32,000 bases of DNA from Ferroglobus placidus DSM 10642 (GCF_000025505.1 NC_013849.1:1440001-1472000), one strand, 5' to 3'. Shown: positions 12,186 through 31,451, counted from the first letter of the stretch. Translations and numbers: made by a program. Notes: a model not told the origin generated them from the sequence alone.

Positions 12186-12641
12186 TTACTCTTTAACGAG
12201 TTTGTAAGCTACGTAAATTACTATAGCTGTAATGCTTGCTGCTAAAATTGCAAAAAGTATAATTTCCACAGGAGTTACAGTACCGCCAAGGGGTTTTGGA
12301 GCGATATTTCTATTCTTGAACAAGAGCAATTTTGTTAAAAACACAATCACAACGAGAGTTGAAAATATAATTATTCTTAAAGACTTCTTTCTCAAAATAC
12401 TTTTTCCAGCTTCCGTCAATTCATAGTATTTCCATTTCCTGTTTGACCGAACCTTTCTAACGAATCCAGCTTTTTCAAGAAGAGAGAGATGGTAATGTAC
12501 TGTTGGTACCGATAAATTCAACAACCTTGCCAATTCTGAGGCAGTATACCTTCTTTCACTCAAATGCTTCAAAATTTTTGTCCGAAACTTGTTCATAAGA
12601 ATCTTAGCTTCCTCGACAGATATTTTGTCTTCTTCCAACAT
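12186..12641 (-). CDS. Membrane-tethered ArsR-type winged-helix regulator (N-terminal wHTH plus two C-terminal TM helices), 151 aa
   Basis: Start taken at ATG 12641 (MLEEDK...). wHTH: YTASELARLLNLSVPTVHYHLSLLEKAGFVRKV. TM1: LRIIIFSTLVVIVFLTKLLLF. Short loop: KNRNIAPKPLGGTVTP. TM2: VEIILFAILAASITAIVIYVAYKLV. Confidence 0.7.
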   Translation of the reverse strand: MLEEDKISVEEAKILMNKFRTKILKHLSERRYTASELARLLNLSVPTVHYHLSLLEKAGFVRKVRSNRKWKYYELTEAGKSILRKKSLRIIIFSTLVVIVFLTKLLLFKNRNIAPKPLGGTVTPVEIILFAILAASITAIVIYVAYKLVKE

Positions 12642-12732
12642 TTTTTGAGTGAAATTTGAAAGAACGTATAAAAATTTTACGGAAATTTTAGAAAGTCTTC
12701 TGATGATTTCGTCATAATTTTTAGTTATTTCT

Positions 12733-13542
12733 ATGTTTTTGATAGTTATGAGAAAAAGTGGTGGAGTTGAAGTAGGGATCGTTCTACTATTCGTTTTAGC
12801 AGCCATAGATGCTGTGAACGCCTATGAATATTCAATAACAATTGTTGAAGACTACGAGCACAGTTCTGACTTATGGCCATGTAACGTAGAGGACCTTACA
12901 CCTTGGGGTACAAGGGAAGCTAATGTTGTCGAAGAATGGCTCAGTAATGCTGGATGGTCCAAAGTTTTTCGTCATAAAGATAGCGGTGTTACAAAAGAGG
13001 ACTTTGGTACAAGTAATGCAGGATATCAAGGGCTAGACGAGGCGGATTTTCATTTCCACATTGGTCATGGATATAATTTACCGGTCTGGGGGACTTTCTT
13101 AGCACTCTGGAACTGGTCTCCGTGCTCGGGGGGTCTTACGATCCATCCATCTGATGTTGCTAAAAAATGGGATTTTGACAATGAGTGGGTCTTTTTGCAC
13201 AGCTGTAATGTGTTGAGCGATGTTAGTGAGTGGGGTAAAGCGCTAAAGTATTCCCACATGATTATGGGATTTTCCACAACAACGTACACAAGCACAGAAT
13301 TGCTTGATAGATTCTTTAGAGCAGCGATTGAGTGGGATTGGGATGTGTATTGGTCATATTATCATGCAACTACGGAGACTTACAAGGGTTATGATAGTAC
13401 AATTAAAGCGGTAATCATTGCAGACAATTCTGATCAGCTATATAACGATCATTTGTGGGGTCAGGGGAATGTTGAGCCAGATGAATACCCAGACGATGAT
13501 GAAGTCGTTTATAGAGAGTGGATTTGTTCGGGAGGTGAGTAA
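12733..13542 (+). CDS. Secreted hypothetical protein with clan-CD-like His-Gly / Cys dyad (candidate cysteine peptidase), 269 aa
   Basis: Signal-peptide-like N-terminus (alternative ATG at 12748: MRKSGGVEVGIVLLFVLAAIDAVNA/YE). Hydrophobic strand plus H-G (FHFHIGHG, His codon 13066-13068). Then hydrophobic strand plus S-C (WVFLHSC, Cys codon 13204-13206) 46 residues later. The family itself is not recognised. Confidence 0.55.
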   Translation: MFLIVMRKSGGVEVGIVLLFVLAAIDAVNAYEYSITIVEDYEHSSDLWPCNVEDLTPWGTREANVVEEWLSNAGWSKVFRHKDSGVTKEDFGTSNAGYQGLDEADFHFHIGHGYNLPVWGTFLALWNWSPCSGGLTIHPSDVAKKWDFDNEWVFLHSCNVLSDVSEWGKALKYSHMIMGFSTTTYTSTELLDRFFRAAIEWDWDVYWSYYHATTETYKGYDSTIKAVIIADNSDQLYNDHLWGQGNVEPDEYPDDDEVVYREWICSGGE

Positions 13543-13543
13543 A

Positions 13544-14275
13544 ATGATTTTAAGAATTATCGTCGCTATTTTACTAATTATGGCTCTTAGCACGACTCTA
13601 TATACTTGGCTAAATGACCAAAATCCGTTACCAAAATCAGTGGGTAAGGATGGAAAGATAATGTTGAAGACGAAGCTTCCAGAAATTAAAGTTGCCGCCG
13701 TATATAGGATAGTGGATGTTGAAAGGGTGTTAATCCCCCCAAAGAAAAATCTTAGAGAGGTTAAGTTCGTGCCGAGCGAAAGTGAGGCCATTAATATACT
13801 TAATAGCTACCTTAACATCTCTGGGTATAATGGTCTCGTGCTAAAAAATGTTGAGACGGTGACTACTAAAACTATAAATACAAAAACGGGAGAGATAACT
13901 AAAGTAAAGCCAGAATTTGTGAGCATAGTATATGGAAGAGAAATTAATGGAACTCCAGTAATTGGTCCGGCTGCTGACGGAATAGTTGCAGCGGTGGCGG
14001 ATAATGAAGTAATATACCTGTCAAAGCTGTGGAGAAAAGTTGAAAAAATTGGCGAAAAACGAATAATTACTGCTGAAAATGCACTTAAAAAACTTGAATA
14101 TGGAGAATTACTAAATAATCCACTTTATACTGGTACTAAGCTTGAAATTAGAGATGTGAAACTTGCCTATTATGCAGAGAACGAAAATCAGAAATACTAT
14201 AAAGTCGTCTGGCTATTTAAATGTGTAGATGAATACGGAAACTGGGTAGATATCATAGTAGATGCGAGTAGTTAA
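13544..14275 (+). CDS. N-terminally membrane-anchored protein with two PepSY-like modules, 243 aa
   Basis: ATG 13544 lies 1 nt after the upstream stop, with GGAGGTGA at 13531-13538. TM: MILRIIVAILLIMALSTTLY. C-terminal module: ITAENALKKLEYGEL...IRDVKLAYY...YYKVVWLFK...WVDIIVDASS. This resembles the PepSY pattern (helix, then strands ending in vDA). Confidence 0.5.
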   Translation: MILRIIVAILLIMALSTTLYTWLNDQNPLPKSVGKDGKIMLKTKLPEIKVAAVYRIVDVERVLIPPKKNLREVKFVPSESEAINILNSYLNISGYNGLVLKNVETVTTKTINTKTGEITKVKPEFVSIVYGREINGTPVIGPAADGIVAAVADNEVIYLSKLWRKVEKIGEKRIITAENALKKLEYGELLNNPLYTGTKLEIRDVKLAYYAENENQKYYKVVWLFKCVDEYGNWVDIIVDASS

Positions 14276-14286
14276 GGGGGTTACAA

Positions 14287-14517
14287 ATGATGATTGAACA
14301 GGAGTTTCTTAGGAACATTATTTTTCATCTCTTTATATCCAAACCTTTTAACCCACAGCAATTGTTAATCCTTTTTTCTATGATTTTTGCTGGAATTTAC
14401 CTTAAAAAGACCAAATCCGGCGTTATAAAAATCATTGGGACAATATTTGCAATCTTCGGAATTGTTGTTCTTGCAGTTAGAATTGCTGTTGTCCTTTACT
14501 TAGCTACACAAATCTAA
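14287..14517 (+). CDS. Small 2-TM membrane protein, 76 aa
   Basis: GGGGGT lies 5-10 nt upstream of the ATG. Two hydrophobic helices (LLILFSMIFAGIYL; IIGTIFAIFGIVVLAVRIAVVLYL). Last gene of the 12733-14517 operon. Confidence 0.5.
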   Translation: MMIEQEFLRNIIFHLFISKPFNPQQLLILFSMIFAGIYLKKTKSGVIKIIGTIFAIFGIVVLAVRIAVVLYLATQI

Positions 14518-14532
14518 CGTTAGTTGTTTGTG

Positions 14533-14940
14533 GTGAGATGATGAAAATACATCGAAAATTGCAATAGCTCAGGTCTCTCCAGAATATATGGAAGAAGGAG
14601 GGAAGCATCGAAAAGGCATGGGTAACAATGGAAAAAGCTGGAAAGAGAGGAGCGAAGCTGATATTTGCGGAGCTGGATCTTGAGGAGATGCTTGCAACCA
14701 AAGCTTACTTCGACTGAGCTATTTAACAGCAAATGGGATGTCATTCAGATAGTTTACAGAGCGAAAAAGAATGTTCCAATAGAGATAGTTAAATCTGCGA
14801 ATTAGGATATAATATCATCAAGGGCTATTGAAGAGGTTGTTAGAAAGTACATCACTTCCGTAGAAAAAGTTGAGGGGGCTTTTGAGCAAACTTCGAAAGG
14901 TGCTTGAAGAAAGAGGTCACGAATCTTAACGATTAAAAAT
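14533..14940 (+). pseudogene. Decayed gene remnants, possibly the N-terminal part of a carbon-nitrogen hydrolase (nitrilase superfamily) gene
   Basis: Peptide pieces sit in three different frames, separated by stops. They are ..SKIAIAQVSPEY.., ..KEGSIEKAWVTMEKAGKRGAKLIFAELDLEE.., ..FNSKWDVIQIVYRAKKNVPIEIV.., and ..AIEEVVRKYITSVEKVEGAFEQ... The KIAIAQ...GAKLIF-EL order recalls CN-hydrolase N-termini. There is no intact start. Boundaries are approximate. Confidence 0.3.
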
Positions 14941-15032
14941 TGAGAAATTTATTACCAAATAAAAACACTTCTGAAATCTGAGAATTCCGAAGCTATTTAG
15001 CTGAGGCTGAGAAATTGTTAGCAGGTGGTAGC

Positions 15033-27221: not shown

Positions 27222-28100
27222 ATGCTCGTTGTAGCTTTCGAGGCTAAGCAAGTGGCTGAAAACTTCTCCGCTTCTTCGAAACTCTCAAGCGATTTAGTTT
27301 TCGCGTGTTTCGACGAGAGCGTTGCCGAAGAGGGAAAGAAATTTTTTAAAGAAGTGTATCTCATAAAAGCCGGAGACTACGATCCTTTCGTTTACTCTGA
27401 AGCTTTAAAAGAGCTCTACAACGAGGTTGGAGCTAAGGGAATTCTCATGGAATCCTCAGCCAAAGGCGTTGCTGTGGCTTCTATGCTTTCGGCTAAGCTC
27501 AACATAAGGTGCGTGAGCGATGTAAAGGCTATCGAAGACAATTACGTGAAGAGATCCGCTTTAGGAGCTGCGGAAGCTAAGGTGAAGCTTGAGCTTCCGG
27601 CTATAATTTGCGTCAAACCCGGGAGTTTCGAGAAGGCTGAAGGGAAGGAGAGCGGAGAGGTGAAAGTCGTAGAGAAGAGCTTCGAGAGAAAAATCAATTT
27701 GCTGGAGTTCAAGGAGAAGGAAAAGGGAGCCGACATAAGCGAGGCGGAAGTCGTAGTCTGTGCCGGGAGAGGTGTAAAGAAGAAAGAGGACTTGGCTATG
27801 CTCGAAGAACTTGCGAAGCTTTTAAACGGAGCTGTGGGGGTGAGCAGACCTCTTTCAGCCGACTTGAAGTGGATGCCGAACTGGGTGGGGATGAGCGGAA
27901 TAACCGTGAAGCCTAAACTTTATATAGGTGTCGGAGTTTCCGGACAGATTCAGCACGTGGCTGGAATAAGGGATTCCAAAATAATAGTGGCGATAAACAA
28001 CGATCCAAAAGCACCGATATTCGAGAACGCTGATTACGGAATCGTGGGAGATCTCTACGAGGTTGTGCCGAAGCTGATAGAAAAGCTCAAGCAAAGCTAA
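27222..28100 (+). CDS. etfA: Electron transfer flavoprotein alpha subunit, 292 aa
   Basis: C-terminal FAD domain motifs VVVCAGRGV, PKLYIGVGVSGQIQHVAG and IVAINNDPKAPIF. Confidence 0.85.
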   Translation: MLVVAFEAKQVAENFSASSKLSSDLVFACFDESVAEEGKKFFKEVYLIKAGDYDPFVYSEALKELYNEVGAKGILMESSAKGVAVASMLSAKLNIRCVSDVKAIEDNYVKRSALGAAEAKVKLELPAIICVKPGSFEKAEGKESGEVKVVEKSFERKINLLEFKEKEKGADISEAEVVVCAGRGVKKKEDLAMLEELAKLLNGAVGVSRPLSADLKWMPNWVGMSGITVKPKLYIGVGVSGQIQHVAGIRDSKIIVAINNDPKAPIFENADYGIVGDLYEVVPKLIEKLKQS

Positions 28101-28101
28101 C

Positions 28102-28112
28102 TTTTATTTTTT
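28102..28112 (+). terminator. Oligo-T stretch after etfA
   Basis: TTTTATTTTTT directly follows the etfA stop. It overlaps the stop of the convergent 121-aa ORF. Confidence 0.35.
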
Positions 28113-28476
28113 ACGGGTAAAACAGTGAGTGAATCTGGCTGACCAAGCTCTGAATGAAGTAGTTCTTCGCTATTCCGCTTTTTAACGTTTTGTAAAACTG
28201 CAAGTCTTCGAAGATCTCTATTGCTATGATTTTGGGGAGCGTCCTTATTCTGTCTTCGAAGAGAGCTATAGCAACTTCAGCAGCTCTGCTTTCGAGCTTC
28301 ATCCTTACGAAGTTGGAGTAGATGGGCTTGAGCTCCTTTATTATCTCTTCTTTCATCATCTTTTCCTGAGATTTCGAGAGAAAGATCGCTCTCAGAAGAT
28401 TTTTTAGCCTCTCGGCTTTGGTTCTCCTGAACTTTTTGGAGATGTAGCGATTCACCGAGGCTATCTCGCTCTCCAT
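28111..28476 (-). CDS. Hypothetical all-helical protein, 121 aa
   Basis: ATG start and an uninterrupted ORF. No motif recognised. Confidence 0.4.
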   Translation of the reverse strand: MESEIASVNRYISKKFRRTKAERLKNLLRAIFLSKSQEKMMKEEIIKELKPIYSNFVRMKLESRAAEVAIALFEDRIRTLPKIIAIEIFEDLQFYKTLKSGIAKNYFIQSLVSQIHSLFYP

Positions 28477-28574
28477 TTGAATAATGTTATTGATTGACGA
28501 TGATAAATTTTTCTGTTGTGGGATTCTTTAAAAATTAGGAGGAAAACTTGACAACGGCTTTATTCAAACAGTTT

Positions 28575-28668
28575 TAAAATCTCACTACAAACCAGTGAGT
28601 CTCAATCCTCTTCTCAGCTCCACCTTTACCCATGGGTAAACAGTGTCGTAAACGAATGCAATCTTCAT
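28575..28668 (-). pseudogene. Glycosyltransferase (GT4-like) 5'-end fragment, copy R1
   Basis: ATGAAGATTGCATTCGTTTACGACACTGTTTACCCATGG... encodes MKIAFVYDTVYPWVK. A 1-nt frame slip then gives GGAEKRI-ETHWF. It begins 2 nt after the MazF stop. No remainder of a GT gene follows. Confidence 0.55.
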
Positions 28669-28670
28669 AA

Positions 28671-29034
28671 TCATGAAATCAGACCAAATACCCTCTTAAT
28701 GACGTTTTTAACTTCAATTAGCTTTTCAGATTTTAGCTTTCCGACCTTCTTGAGAATTAAATTTTTCTCTACGGTAAAGATTGAATGACAGTGAATGTAG
28801 CTTGTTTTCTTTAGCTTTCCCTCCTCAAGATCGTTTGGAGTTATTTCGATTTCAAAATCAGGTAATTGTTGAGAGGAACTAATTTTGGCGACTATCAAAT
28901 CAGTCGATATATTATTCAGTTACTTCTGAGCTTAAAACCAGTACAGGTCTAAGCTTTTTACCTATCAAATCTGTAAACGGCAACTCAAGAATAACCACGT
29001 CACCTTCTTTATAACTCGAAAAGCTCTTCTGCAT
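28671..29034 (-). pseudogene. mazF: MazF/PemK-family toxin gene split by a 1-nt frameshift
   Basis: The N-terminal frame (29034-28912) reads MQKSFSSYKEGDVVILELPFTDLIGKKLRPVLVLSSEVTE*. The C-terminal frame (to 28671) reads LNNISTDLIVAKISSSQ...SYIHCHSIFTVEKNLILKKVGKLKSEKLIEVKNVIKRVFGL. Removing one A near 28917-28919 restores one PemK-like ORF. Confidence 0.7.
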
Positions 29035-29194
29035 CCTCACCCTCCTTCAAAATCTTCAGATATCCGTGCAATTTTAATTCATCTATCGTCTTTGCCTCCC
29101 CTATGCTTAAAACGACTTTTGATCTTTCGGGAATATCCAATTTCTCCAACGGTATTAGAACTCCTTTCTCGTAAATGCATTCAATTTTCCTCAT
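29009..29194 (-). CDS. DUF104 (AF2212-like) antitoxin-family protein, 61 aa
   Basis: MRKIECIYEKGVLIPLEKLDIPERSKVVLSI is the classic DUF104 N-terminus. ATG 29194 is preferred over TTG 29212. Its 3' end overlaps the mazF start by 26 nt. Confidence 0.7.
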   Translation of the reverse strand: MRKIECIYEKGVLIPLEKLDIPERSKVVLSIGEAKTIDELKLHGYLKILKEGEDAEELFEL

Positions 29195-29259
29195 AACATC
29201 TCCTAAGAACAAATATTTTGAAATATGTTTCGTTCAGATGTGCAAATCTATGCGCACGG

Positions 29260-29383
29260 GTACTACGTTATTTTTATGACATCCCTTTCACCATCAGCTC
29301 CAAACCAGTGGACCTCATGCTTTTTAGCTAATCTTCTAAATCTTCTACTTATTTCGTAATTATTTTTATAATGCGATCTTCAT
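29260..29383 (-). pseudogene. Glycosyltransferase (GT4-like) 5'-end fragment, copy R2
   Basis: ATGAAGATCGCATTATAA (MKIAL*) is followed by ..YEISRRFRRLAKKHEVHWFGADGERDVIKIT*. It begins 1 nt after the DUF2283 stop. Confidence 0.55.
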
Positions 29384-29384
29384 T

Positions 29385-29603
29385 TTATGTCCTCATCATA
29401 CCTTTTATCGGTTTCTGTTCGAGAATTGGTTGCAGAAAGCTAAGAATCACTCTCGAAGCGTCCAGAATCTCAATTTTTACAACCCTATTCTCCTCTGAAT
29501 AGTGAAGTATTATGTTTTCGTCGTATTCTTCCCCATATTTCGGCTTTTCGTCTAGTGATCTTATCTCAAGTACATCCGAATCTGGATAGTATCTTATCTT
29601 CAT
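29385..29603 (-). CDS. DUF2283 family protein (putative antitoxin), 72 aa
   Basis: MKIRYYPDSDVLEIRS...ENIILHYSEENRVVKIEILDAS matches the DUF2283 pattern. Confidence 0.7.
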   Translation of the reverse strand: MKIRYYPDSDVLEIRSLDEKPKYGEEYDENIILHYSEENRVVKIEILDASRVILSFLQPILEQKPIKGMMRT

Positions 29604-29904
29604 ACATTACCACCCTGGCAATATATAACGTTACTACGACGGGTATGCCGTTTTCGTACTCGTAAACAACTCTGATTAGATGATCGTTTAGCAACTTATG
29701 TGCTACAAATCTCCCACTGTAGCCTCTTACAACTTCATTCGGGAAGAATAAGGCTCTCAAAACGTTCTCCAAATTTACATCGTATTCCTCGGAAGCATCT
29801 AATAGGTGATTGGTTAGAAGAAGCTTTATGCATCTCGTAAATTCTCTTCTCCGCTCAGCCTTTTGTCGTGGATGGACAGCGTCGTAGATGAATGCTATCT
29901 TCAT
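29566..29904 (-). CDS. DUF4258-like putative toxin, N-terminally fused to glycosyltransferase 5' codons (copy R3), 112 aa
   Basis: MKIAFIYDAVHP... comes from the GT 5' end. An alternative frame still reads AEKRIYEM. It continues in frame into ...TNHLLDASEEYDVNLENVLRAL..EVVRGYSGRFVAHKLLNDHLIRVVYEYENGIPVVVTLY (DUF4258 pattern). SD GGTGAAGTGGTG lies upstream of ATG 29904. Confidence 0.55.
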   Translation of the reverse strand: MKIAFIYDAVHPRQKAERRREFTRCIKLLLTNHLLDASEEYDVNLENVLRALFFPNEVVRGYSGRFVAHKLLNDHLIRVVYEYENGIPVVVTLYIARVVMYEDKILSRFGCT

Positions 29905-30344
29905 CACCACTTCACCTAACACAGAATTTTAATCTTATTATTCTCATTATTATTTTTTTATTATTTTTTGATTTCGTTGAGCACGTTAATAGGACAAACC
30001 CCTCTGGAGGATTCAACTACATCTGGTGTACGCTTGATTATGGGGAAATACTGAGACTTTGCAATGAGGTGCGTTATCGTATCTGAATAAACTCCAAAAC
30101 GTAGCCGCTCAGAAATACGATTTTGCTTCTGATCTAAACTCCTATCGACTGATATTTTCATTCCACGTACTTTCTTTAACGAGTTCGGAATAATCGAAAG
30201 CCATTTAGACAGCGCCTTTTAATTTTTTGGTGAATTTAGTGATTATAATTGTGATAGTATTAATTATGTTCTGGAAACTATAAATATGAAAAATTTTAAA
30301 TCTGTAGTCAAAGAAATTTATTTTTGCTGGTGGAGGGTTTCTAA

Positions 30345-30590
30345 ATGATCAAGAGATCTAAATGGGAAATAACTTATGCGATTCTTAAATCCATTCAAAA
30401 CGGCGAAAAGTCGAAGACTCGCATAATGTACGAGGCGTACTTAGACTGGAGAAATTTTAGCAGATATATAAAATTTTTAATTGATAAAAATCTCGTCGTC
30501 GAAAAGAACGGAGGAAAGCTGGAGATAACGCAAAAAGGAGAAAAGATTCTGAAAATCATGGAGGAGCTAATCGAACTTATAAAAGACTAA
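30345..30590 (+). CDS. Small winged-helix DNA-binding protein (HTH_45-like), 81 aa
   Basis: RSKWEITYAILKSIQNGEKSKTRIMYEAYLDWRNFSRYIKFLIDKNLV...ITQKGEKIL. GGTGGAGGG lies upstream of the ATG. Confidence 0.65.
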   Translation: MIKRSKWEITYAILKSIQNGEKSKTRIMYEAYLDWRNFSRYIKFLIDKNLVVEKNGGKLEITQKGEKILKIMEELIELIKD

Positions 30591-30674
30591 TTTTATATAA
30601 TTATTTTTAAAATATCCACTTTTTTAATATGTTTTAAACACATGTAAAAACCACAGAGAAATGTCTCATCTGGA

Positions 30675-30682
30675 TTTATATA
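30675..30682 (+). promoter_or_regulatory. Candidate TATA box, now separated from the downstream TasA-like gene by the IS
   Basis: TTTATATA. After removing the IS and one TSD copy it would sit 42 nt upstream of ATG 31491. Confidence 0.35.
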
Positions 30683-30685
30683 TTA

Positions 30686-30693
30686 GCATTTTG
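30686..30693. repeat. Target-site duplication, left copy (GCATTTTG)
   Basis: Identical 8-mer directly abutting both IS ends. Confidence 0.8.
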
Positions 30694-30717
30694 GGTAGTG
30701 TCACTATAATGTTGATA
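30694..30717. repeat. IS1 terminal inverted repeat (left in window coordinates)
   Basis: GGTAGTGTCACTATAATGTTGATA, compared with the reverse complement of 31428-31451, GGTAATGCCTCAGTAATGTTTATA. Confidence 0.75.
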
Positions 30718-31150
30718 AATTATAGTAATGAATCCACAATTTAAAAGAATTTTCGAGCATTTCCGAGGATTTTGAGAATCTGATTGATTTTCTTGCGAAT
30801 CTCGGATTATCATTTCTCAGAGTTAAGAATAACCTTTCAACGTGGTTCGTTCCTCCTCTTCTTACGATTCTCTGCCTGTAAGGAATCAAATTATAAGCGT
30901 CCCAGCGATCCGTGTAGAAAATTGCTTTCCGCTTTATTTCATCGCCAATTCCGTCCCACAATTTCTTGAAAGTATCCACAGAACGATCTCCTATTGCATA
31001 ACTTATTATTTTTCGGGAATTTCTCTCTAAAGCAATCCAAATCCAGATTTCGTTTTCCTTTTTCTTAACAAAACTCCAAGCTTCATCTAACTCGATAACA
31101 GGCTTTTCCGATCTAATCTCATTTCTCAGGTCTTTTTTTAGAAAATTCTC
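30704..31150 (-). CDS. insB: IS1 InsB-like DDE catalytic region (open frame with no independent start, +1 relative to insA)
   Basis: IELDEAWSFV... (D), FYTDRWDAY (D) and NHVERLFLTLRN (E). The frame is open from 31150. It overlaps the insA frame across an A7 run (31133-31139). Confidence 0.8.
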   Translation of the reverse strand, partial: ENFLKKDLRNEIRSEKPVIELDEAWSFVKKKENEIWIWIALERNSRKIISYAIGDRSVDTFKKLWDGIGDEIKRKAIFYTDRWDAYNLIPYRQRIVRRGGTNHVERLFLTLRNDNPRFARKSIRFSKSSEMLENSFKLWIHYYNLSTL

Positions 31151-31418
31151 TTACCCAAGCTGTCACAGTGTTAGGAGAAAGCTTGAAAATTCTGCTCGCT
31201 TGTCTTATCCCTACACCCTCCTTCACAACAGCTCTAACTACCATCTCCTTAAATTCCTCGGGATAATTCCTCGGCTTTATCGGATTCAAAACGAAAGTTC
31301 TCCCGCAGCTCTTGCATTTGTATCTCTGCCTCCTCTCACCAGATTTCGTGTAATAACAGCCCATTTTCACAGTTTTTATCGATTTGCAATGCGGACACAT
31401 CATCACCGATTTATCCAA
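31119..31418 (-). CDS. insA: IS1 InsA-like protein (zinc finger plus HTH), 99 aa
   Basis: CPHCKS...CKSCGRTF zinc finger. HTH: GIRQASRIFKLSPNTVTAWV. Confidence 0.85.
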   Translation of the reverse strand: MDKSVMMCPHCKSIKTVKMGCYYTKSGERRQRYKCKSCGRTFVLNPIKPRNYPEEFKEMVVRAVVKEGVGIRQASRIFKLSPNTVTAWVREFSKKRPEK

Positions 31419-31427
31419 CTAATTGAA

Positions 31428-31451
31428 TATAAACATTACTGAGGCATTACC
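31428..31451. repeat. IS1 terminal inverted repeat (right in window coordinates)
   Basis: Partner of 30694-30717. 18 of 24 positions identical by hand alignment. Confidence 0.75.

Follow-up and report, generated by a model that had tools for sequence, protein, structure and literature searches.

A conserved gene pair for an exported DUF6345 protein of predicted caspase fold and a membrane-anchored YycI/PepSY-type protein, accompanied in Archaeoglobi by a membrane-anchored winged-helix regulator

The propeptides of M4 peptidases are chaperone-inhibitors. In the sleB-ypeB operon a membrane-anchored PepSY protein stabilizes a secreted enzyme and keeps it inactive, and the PepSY domains of YpeB have been proposed to be chaperone-inhibitors of the operon partner SleB (bioRxiv 10.64898/2026.06.01.729290). 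WalK is considered to be influenced by YycH and YycI via their membrane helices (PMC7355866), and transmembrane transcription regulators, which combine a DNA-binding domain with at least one predicted membrane helix, are widespread in archaea, with an average of about four per genome (PMC10269533). In caspases, the His is located on the loop after strand β3 and the Cys on the loop after β4 (PMC4357240, McLuskey and Mottram). Here we describe a locus of the archaeon Ferroglobus placidus DSM 10642, situated in a stretch of 32,000 nucleotides that was analyzed as a whole (GCF_000025505.1, NC_013849.1:1440001-1472000; the window). It encodes an exported protein of predicted caspase fold (A), a membrane-anchored protein of predicted YycI/PepSY-type fold (B), a small membrane protein (C) and, divergently transcribed, a membrane-anchored winged-helix regulator (REG) (Table 1).

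The product of gene A matches the Pfam family DUF6345 (PF19872) over residues 50–254, with 55.3 bits against a cut-off of 26.9, and the same profile is matched by 29 of its 30 homologues. A Sec signal peptide can be read at the N-terminus, so that A would be exported. An AlphaFold2 model of A, based on the alignment of the 30 homologues, has a mean predicted local distance difference test score (pLDDT) of 86.6 and a predicted template modeling score (pTM) of 0.84. When this model was compared with the PDB using Foldseek, all 31 matches at E <= 1e-3 were members of clan CD, including caspase-11, -4, -1, -7, -9 and -3, Dronc, MALT1 and a C11 peptidase of Bacteroides. The order of strands and helices in the model fits the β1–β6 layout of caspases (PMC4357240), with His112 just past the hydrophobic strand 106–110 and followed by a small β-hairpin, and Cys158 just past the next core strand (residues 152–156). 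Both residues are invariant in the alignment, which reaches down to 36% identity, and lie in the motifs FH-x-H-x-GHG and EWV-x-x-x-SC. The dyad is kept in every other full-length copy of A examined, including a divergent GHS...HSC form (copy 1 of locus L022). The clan-CD-like dyad that an earlier note on this DNA had pointed out in a signal-peptide protein is thereby supported by both the predicted fold and conservation. As the mature protein begins at the first core strand, A appears to have no propeptide; a C-terminal tail, DEYPDDD...W-x-C, is conserved among the homologues. In all likelihood A is an exported Cys/His enzyme of the caspase fold, and its activity would be that of a peptidase.

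The divergent full-length copies of A score far higher on the Pfam DUF6345 model than A of Ferroglobus, as seen for the first copy in L022 (E 1.6e-49). In two loci of the Archaeoglobus type, L003 (5810-5990) and L004 (5838-5990), the open reading frame (ORF) of A opens at the mature domain. A signal-peptide-like stretch is present upstream in another frame in L003, which suggests a frameshift at the junction of signal peptide and mature protein, and the NCBI annotation of A in these loci is a shorter form of 241 amino acids. A word-indexed protein search returned no entry 100% identical to Ferroglobus A (best 83%) and found B at 100%; in assemblies from raw reads of the same organism, A is called as a gene of 264 amino acids.

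The model of B (mean pLDDT 86.8) consists of a long helix at residues 2–24 followed by an ectodomain. Its best PDB match in Foldseek was YycI of B. subtilis (2o3o, all chains; E 2.7e-6 over approximately 240 aligned columns), followed by an uncharacterized Eubacterium protein, the C-terminal PepSY domains of YpeB (5boi, E 1.8e-3), the propeptide of vibriolysin MCP-02 (3nqz_A, E 2.3e-3) and YycH (2fgt). Relatives of B reach 20–25 bits on the YycI profile PF09648 (cut-off 29.7), and one homologue has a precomputed match to it. The PepSY-like character that had been assigned to this membrane-anchored protein thus stands at the level of the predicted fold (in PepSY, a helix against an antiparallel sheet), with YycI as the closest solved structure, and does not extend to a profile match. 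An exhaustive profile search recovered 519 cluster representatives of the B family at E <= 1e-3, whereas a second, word-indexed search saturated after yielding only three further proteins; the family is therefore sizeable, while lacking a Pfam profile of its own. Some relatives of B are fused to extracellular PKD or cohesin domains, and the membrane helix is poorly conserved.

One genome per species was scanned for relatives of A, which yielded 29 loci (denoted L), and their ORFs were subsequently searched with profiles of the four proteins. Wherever the available sequence allowed a judgment, B was the next gene 3' of A and had the same orientation; the exception is L019, a short contig with a match to B that is oriented oppositely to A, whose end it overlaps. 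The A-B loci span Archaeoglobi, Methanophagales (anaerobic methanotrophic archaea of group 1, ANME-1), Methanosarcinales including ANME-2, and one bacterial contig (Desulfohalobiaceae), and the same order is found in all six loci containing A from a metagenome scan seeded with REG. Homologues of REG adjoin A-B in 11 other genome loci, from Archaeoglobi and ANME-1 (with the window, approximately 12 of approximately 30), and C accompanies the pair in 7 of approximately 30 (window included). All four genes occur together in five Archaeoglobi loci besides the window. Since B follows A everywhere this could be judged and REG and C are present in only some loci, A-B constitutes the obligate unit, to which REG and C were added in particular lineages. 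The four-gene module proposed in the earlier note therefore does recur in other genomes, but only its A-B core is obligate.

In F. placidus only 1 nt lies between the A stop codon and the B start codon, with GGAGGTGA, a strong Shine-Dalgarno sequence, directly 5' of the latter, and C begins 11 nt past B with GGGGGT upstream; both spacings are as previously noted. Shine-Dalgarno sequences are present for B and C and are lacking for A and REG. The coupling of A and B is supported by the 1-nt gap, the strong Shine-Dalgarno sequence on B and a gene order that recurs in three orders of archaea as well as in the bacterial contig.

REG matches HTH_5/ArsR (PF01022) with 48.3 bits against a cut-off of 22, and a hydropathy scan identified two C-terminal hydrophobic helices separated by approximately 16–18 residues, in agreement with the ArsR-type winged helix-turn-helix (HTH) domain and two transmembrane helices proposed earlier. 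It scores below the cut-offs of the NCBIfam ArsR/SmtB and SdpR subfamily models, and the winged-helix region contains no Cys in the sequence as read. With a DNA-binding domain and predicted membrane helices, it qualifies as a transmembrane transcription regulator (PMC10269533). Residues R20, I23, L24, E36, H51, Y72, E74 and L75 are invariant in the alignment of REG, and the charged residues flanking the helices suggest that the loop between them is outside the cell. This loop contains P-L/M-G-G in most copies from Archaeoglobi and ANME-1. The form K-P-L-G-G is conserved in many, not all, of the copies linked to A-B; the motif is absent from L038 and L108, and it is carried by the REG proteins of L048 and L050, on contigs of 2–3 kb in which A-B was not found.

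In Archaeoglobi REG is divergent from A, and in ANME-1 it is encoded on the same strand as A-B, upstream of or between duplicated A-B pairs; the Methanophagales locus L022 (2990-7701) has the order A1-B1-REG-A2-B2. A gene of 356 amino acids that follows REG in ANME-1 was considered as a C39-like peptidase, a reading that Pfam did not confirm. The REG-seeded metagenome scan gave 80 loci, nearly all with the arrangement winged helix, transmembrane helix, loop, transmembrane helix, in which the loop is variable (20–130 residues) and often rich in Pro, Thr and Ala. A-B adjoins only the six closest relatives; for the other 74, the recovered flanks, which are short for many contigs and reach 5 kb for several, contain neither A nor B. 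Their neighbors are heterogeneous, with secreted SIMPL/DUF541 proteins recurring in one subgroup. Regulators of this type are abundant in metagenomes (loci L039-L114), and no characterized member was found. As the combination of a winged helix and two transmembrane helices is widespread and mostly not located beside A-B, REG represents, judged from these comparisons, a single subclade, recruited to this cassette, of a common type of regulator.

The spacer between REG and A was aligned for seven Archaeoglobi loci, revealing 24 invariant columns that are all within positions 26–88 of the F. placidus spacer. A candidate TATA box with an adjoining transcription factor B recognition element (BRE) is kept in all seven spacers, in each case 22–26 nt from the REG start codon; this conservation and spacing, together with archaeal promoter geometry, fit a promoter for a leaderless REG mRNA. 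On the other side, a TTTTT block is conserved at a T-rich, TATA-like box that would serve a leaderless A-B-C mRNA and is consistent with the call of A as a protein of 264 amino acids. Between the two candidate promoters lies an imperfect palindrome, TTAGA-N6-TCTRA, with a single exact match in the window. The Archaeoglobi spacers retain both arms, which in L001 form a perfect CTTAGA-N6-TCTAAG, and the palindrome is therefore a candidate operator to which REG may bind. The two copies of GAAATTT that the earlier note had singled out are both present in the spacer, but an operator role for this word was rejected, as its 13 occurrences in the window compare with an expectation of 15.6 and the first copy (12651-12657) is in an unconserved part of the spacer.

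For C, the gene and its size of 76 amino acids are as described before. One hydrophobic helix is clear at the threshold used and the second is weaker, whereas the homologues show two, so that C probably has two membrane helices. No Pfam, NCBIfam or PADLOC family was matched. Homologues are found 3' of B in six other loci, from five Archaeoglobi lineages and an unclassified uncultured archaeon (L018), and share the motifs KPFD-x-QL and LR-x-x-VV-x-YLA. In the loci sampled, C is accompanied by REG wherever sequence upstream of A is available. Other genes occupy the place of C in other lineages. In ANME-1 a multi-pass membrane protein of 90 amino acids with no detectable relation to C is encoded 3' of B (L013, 3921-4193; L014, 3862-4134; L015, 4784-5056). 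In Methanosarcinales a conserved third gene follows B (L008, 7535-8209; L009, 7518-8063; L011, 7521-8180), encoding 181–224 amino acids with an N-terminal transmembrane helix, no Pfam match and a C-terminal YYPAWKI reminiscent of the final PepSY-like module in B.

We consider it somewhat more probable than not that A is an extracytoplasmic cysteine peptidase held, probably in a latent state, by B, with REG controlling transcription. In this model A, a minimal caspase-fold cysteine peptidase without its own propeptide, would be exported via its Sec signal peptide, and B, anchored by one N-terminal helix, would present its YycI/PepSY-fold ectodomain at the outer face of the membrane, bind A and retain it there. 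By analogy with YpeB for SleB and with the PepSY propeptides of M4 peptidases, B would probably be a chaperone-inhibitor of A, in effect a propeptide supplied in trans. The A-B pair of Archaeoglobi, and that of ANME-1 with the genes arranged differently, would have acquired REG; by binding TTAGA-N6-TCTRA between the back-to-back promoters for leaderless mRNAs, REG could regulate the A-B-C operon as well as its own expression. C may be an accessory specific to Archaeoglobi, probably acting in the membrane with B or REG. The earlier note had made its proposal depend on co-conservation of the genes, on a caspase-like and a PepSY fold and on conservation of His112 and Cys158; all of these were found when checked, the second at the level of predicted structures.

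Several results weigh against this model. The TM-scores of A to caspases are only approximately 0.45–0.50. PDB sequence and profile searches with A returned no more than chance-level matches, and A has no sequence similarity to any characterized peptidase. Peptidase_C14 was detected in just 1 of the 30 homologues (E 0.16), and among the clan CD sequence families (C11, C13, C14, C25, C50, C80) none was matched by A, DUF6345 being its only match. Likewise, B matched no Pfam family at E <= 1, neither PepSY (PF03413) nor YycI (PF09648), and no NCBIfam model, and a PDB sequence and profile search with B gave zero matches. No copy of the palindrome was detected in front of REG in ANME-1. A is disrupted (frameshifted, interrupted or 5'-truncated) in approximately 12 of approximately 31 distinct loci (L007, L011, L018, L020, L021, L023-L028 and L038; the gene in L025 is 5'-truncated), so the peptidase would be dispensable in many genomes; these copies may result from degeneration of a costly gene or from metagenome assembly errors. 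B is disrupted in approximately five loci (L004, L023, L024, L028 and L029), and the excess for A is not statistically strong. In the isolate genome of Methanohalophilus profundi, a GAA codon of A is changed to TAA; a pyrrolysine codon was considered and rejected, as the in-frame stop is TAA.

Several variants of A carry dockerins and some variants of B a cohesin, which show that both are surface components and lend soft support to direct contact between them. An ANME-2-like contig (L032, 1-11233) encodes a B with a C-terminal cohesin and an A with a dockerin-like N-terminus. This A is a chimera, in which a signal peptide, a dockerin-like repeat and a partial Peripla_BP_2 domain are fused to DUF6345; its N-terminal part is nearly identical to that of four neighboring paralogues, and two radical-SAM genes are present in the cluster. 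As the dockerin is common to the four paralogues, the cohesin on B is not specific evidence for contact with A, and the argument from this pairing is weakened, which again counts against the model.

Other explanations of the locus differ from this model mainly in the part they assign to B or REG, or in the chemistry of A. It is unlikely, in our view, that B mainly modulates REG by contacts between transmembrane helices, possibly with C, and that A is a regulated output or the activity that is sensed. Such a role would suit YycI as the best structural match along the full length of B, both proteins combining an N-terminal anchor with an ectodomain of approximately 220 residues, the precedent of YycH and YycI acting on WalK through their membrane helices (PMC7355866) and the company of REG and C noted above. 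However, B is present in every locus with A, including the majority without REG or C, so its conserved partner is A; the transmembrane helix of B shows little conservation, and no histidine kinase is near the locus, nor was a WalK-type kinase or response regulator found among the called genes around it or in related loci. A little less likely still is a direct action of A on the regulator, in which A would cleave the outside loop of REG, or the ectodomain of B, and thereby switch REG on or off. Regulated proteolysis is known for TcpP- and ToxR-type regulators. Here, two gene orders (Archaeoglobi and ANME-1) bring REG together with A and B, A would share the membrane side with the loop of REG, and P-L/M-G-G is conserved in the loop of many A-B-linked copies; the motif is nevertheless missing from the A-B-linked L038 and L108 and present in L048 and L050, a Lys-Pro bond makes a poor site for cleavage, and because most A-B pairs lack REG, it cannot be the main substrate. 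We regard as improbable a full surface proteolysis circuit, in which B keeps the protease latent, an envelope signal frees it, the REG loop or B is cleaved and transcription is reset. If true, it would be an archaeal counterpart, with a caspase-like enzyme, of the regulated proteolysis of membrane-bound transcription factors.

Equally improbable is that the Cys/His pair of A serves a non-proteolytic reaction, such as transpeptidation or the attachment of surface proteins, or that A is a non-catalytic binding protein. Clan CD includes transamidases, for instance the C13 glycosylphosphatidylinositol (GPI) transamidase, and the lack of sequence similarity to any characterized peptidase fits this idea as well, whereas the strict conservation of the dyad argues for catalysis, be it hydrolysis or transfer. 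We give the least credence to antagonism, with A as an exported toxic protease directed at competitors and B as the surface-anchored immunity protein of the producer. The patchy, cassette-like distribution, the low G+C content and non-conserved flanks described below would suit this, as would the more frequent disruption of A than of B, which resembles orphan immunity genes; but that excess is weak statistically and may partly stem from metagenome assembly errors, the dockerins on several A variants would hold A on the producer's own surface, and no polymorphic-toxin features or defense-system matches were found.

The same four genes were recovered by an independent gene caller in public F. 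placidus assemblies. This caller starts A at 12748, giving 264 amino acids, while an in-frame ATG at 12733 is the base of the residue numbering used here, which follows the earlier note. The G+C content is 0.35–0.41 across 12–15 kb of the window against 0.43–0.50 in the surroundings, and the genes flanking the cassette are not common to other Archaeoglobi genomes, in which no flank synteny was found; together this suggests a mobile or recently acquired cassette. The approximately 500 bp 3' of C (14518-15014) contain no convincing gene, one caller listing an ORF of 29 amino acids. No Rfam match and no intrinsic-terminator-like site was found within 11.8–15.2 kb, PADLOC returned no defense-system match for A, B or C, and a sigma-70 promoter scan is irrelevant to an archaeal host. 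A second stretch of low G+C content (28100-31450; 0.34–0.39) contains several short ORFs, two likely transposase fragments on the minus strand (30704-30979 and 31119-31418) and two near-matches to the palindrome pattern that are probably due to chance.

Table 1. Features of the F. placidus locus, in positions of the window.
Feature	Position	Strand	Description
REG	12641-12186	-	151-aa ORF; same gene from independent caller; HTH_5 48.3 bits, HTH_20 44.4 bits
REG winged-helix domain	12387-12605	-	Residues ~13-85; stretches matched by Pfam/NCBIfam
REG C-terminal hairpin (TM1-loop-TM2)	12201-12374	-	Predicted by hydropathy scan; loop KNRNIAPKPLGGTVTP
Divergent control region REG/A	12642-12747		106 bp; conserved core ~55 bp
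Candidate TATA box for REG	12667-12674	-	TATAAAAA; spacer conservation and spacing
Candidate BRE for REG	12675-12682	-	CCGTAAAA on minus strand; CGNAAA-type element beyond TATA
Imperfect palindrome	12688-12703		TTAGAAAGTCTTCTGA; TTAGA-N6-TCTRA, between the two candidate promoters
T-rich TATA-like box for A (candidate)	12716-12723	+	AATTTTTA; 25 nt 5' of ATG 12748
A	12748-13542	+	Secreted DUF6345 protein, predicted caspase/clan-CD fold; alternative ATG 12733
A signal peptide (predicted)	12748-12822	+	MRKSGGVEVGIVLLFVLAAIDAVNA|YEY; MRK, hydrophobic core, then VNA|YE; sequence inspection
A His112 codon	13066-13068	+	Numbering from 12733
A Cys158 codon	13204-13206	+	Numbering from 12733
B	13544-14275	+	243 aa; membrane-anchored, predicted YycI/PepSY-type fold
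B N-terminal anchor helix	13544-13615	+	Helix 2-24 in model
B ectodomain	13616-14272	+	Model; β-strand-rich
C	14287-14517	+	76-aa small membrane protein; ORF and independent gene call

If the model of a peptidase held by B is correct, DUF6345 would gain a directly testable function through its caspase fold, conserved dyad and obligate partner gene. The chaperone-inhibitor role of PepSY domains, so far associated with metallopeptidases and SleB, would then cover a caspase-fold enzyme in another domain of life as well. Extracellular proteolysis and the processing of surface proteins are poorly understood in archaea, including the methane-oxidizing ANME lineages, and the Archaeoglobi version, which couples a membrane-bound regulator to a control region of 106 bp with a conserved palindrome, would offer a compact test system for how such regulators act while bound to the membrane.

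A resembles the clan CD peptidases (C14, C11) in its predicted caspase-hemoglobinase fold, an α/β arrangement around a central sheet of six strands, in having a His(-Gly) and a Cys that each follow a hydrophobic strand, in the order β3/L3 then β4/L4, and in the small β-hairpin after the His strand, as in caspases. It differs from them in several respects: no sequence similarity to a clan CD family was detected, it carries a signal peptide for export, it is a minimal domain of approximately 240 residues that lacks a prodomain and any obvious internal activation linker, and it has its own conserved C-terminal DEYPDDD...W-x-C tail. The gene order is that of SleB-YpeB of Bacillus, where the gene for a signal-peptide enzyme is likewise followed by that for an N-terminally anchored PepSY-type protein, and the model of B matches 5boi; SleB, however, is a lytic transglycosylase whereas A has a caspase fold, and the host here is an archaeon without peptidoglycan or spores. 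With YycI and YycH (WalI/WalH), B shares its best structural match (2o3o), an identical architecture and the sub-threshold profile matches of its relatives, but it fails the YycI profile, there is no WalK-type kinase or response regulator at the locus, and its conserved partner is A. As for the M4 propeptides (FTP and PepSY; vibriolysin MCP-02), the likeness is the match of the B ectodomain to 3nqz_A, while B is a separate membrane-anchored protein and its partner is a Cys/His enzyme instead of a metallopeptidase. REG, similar to ToxR, TcpP and CadC of bacteria and to ArnR and ArnR1 of Sulfolobus, has an N-terminal DNA-binding domain tethered to the membrane, and it shares with ArnR, by description, the architecture of an HTH and two C-terminal transmembrane helices; unlike these regulators it combines an ArsR-type winged helix with two C-terminal transmembrane helices, a loop of approximately 16–18 residues and no sensor domain. 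In line with the earlier note, which did not recognize the combination as a described system, a full-text literature search found no description of it, nor of DUF6345 as a caspase fold with an obligate partner, DUF6345 being mentioned solely as a line in one proteomics table. Each part is thus of a known kind, a clan CD fold, a YycI/PepSY fold and a transmembrane regulator, and it is their combination and the assignment of DUF6345 that appear to be new.

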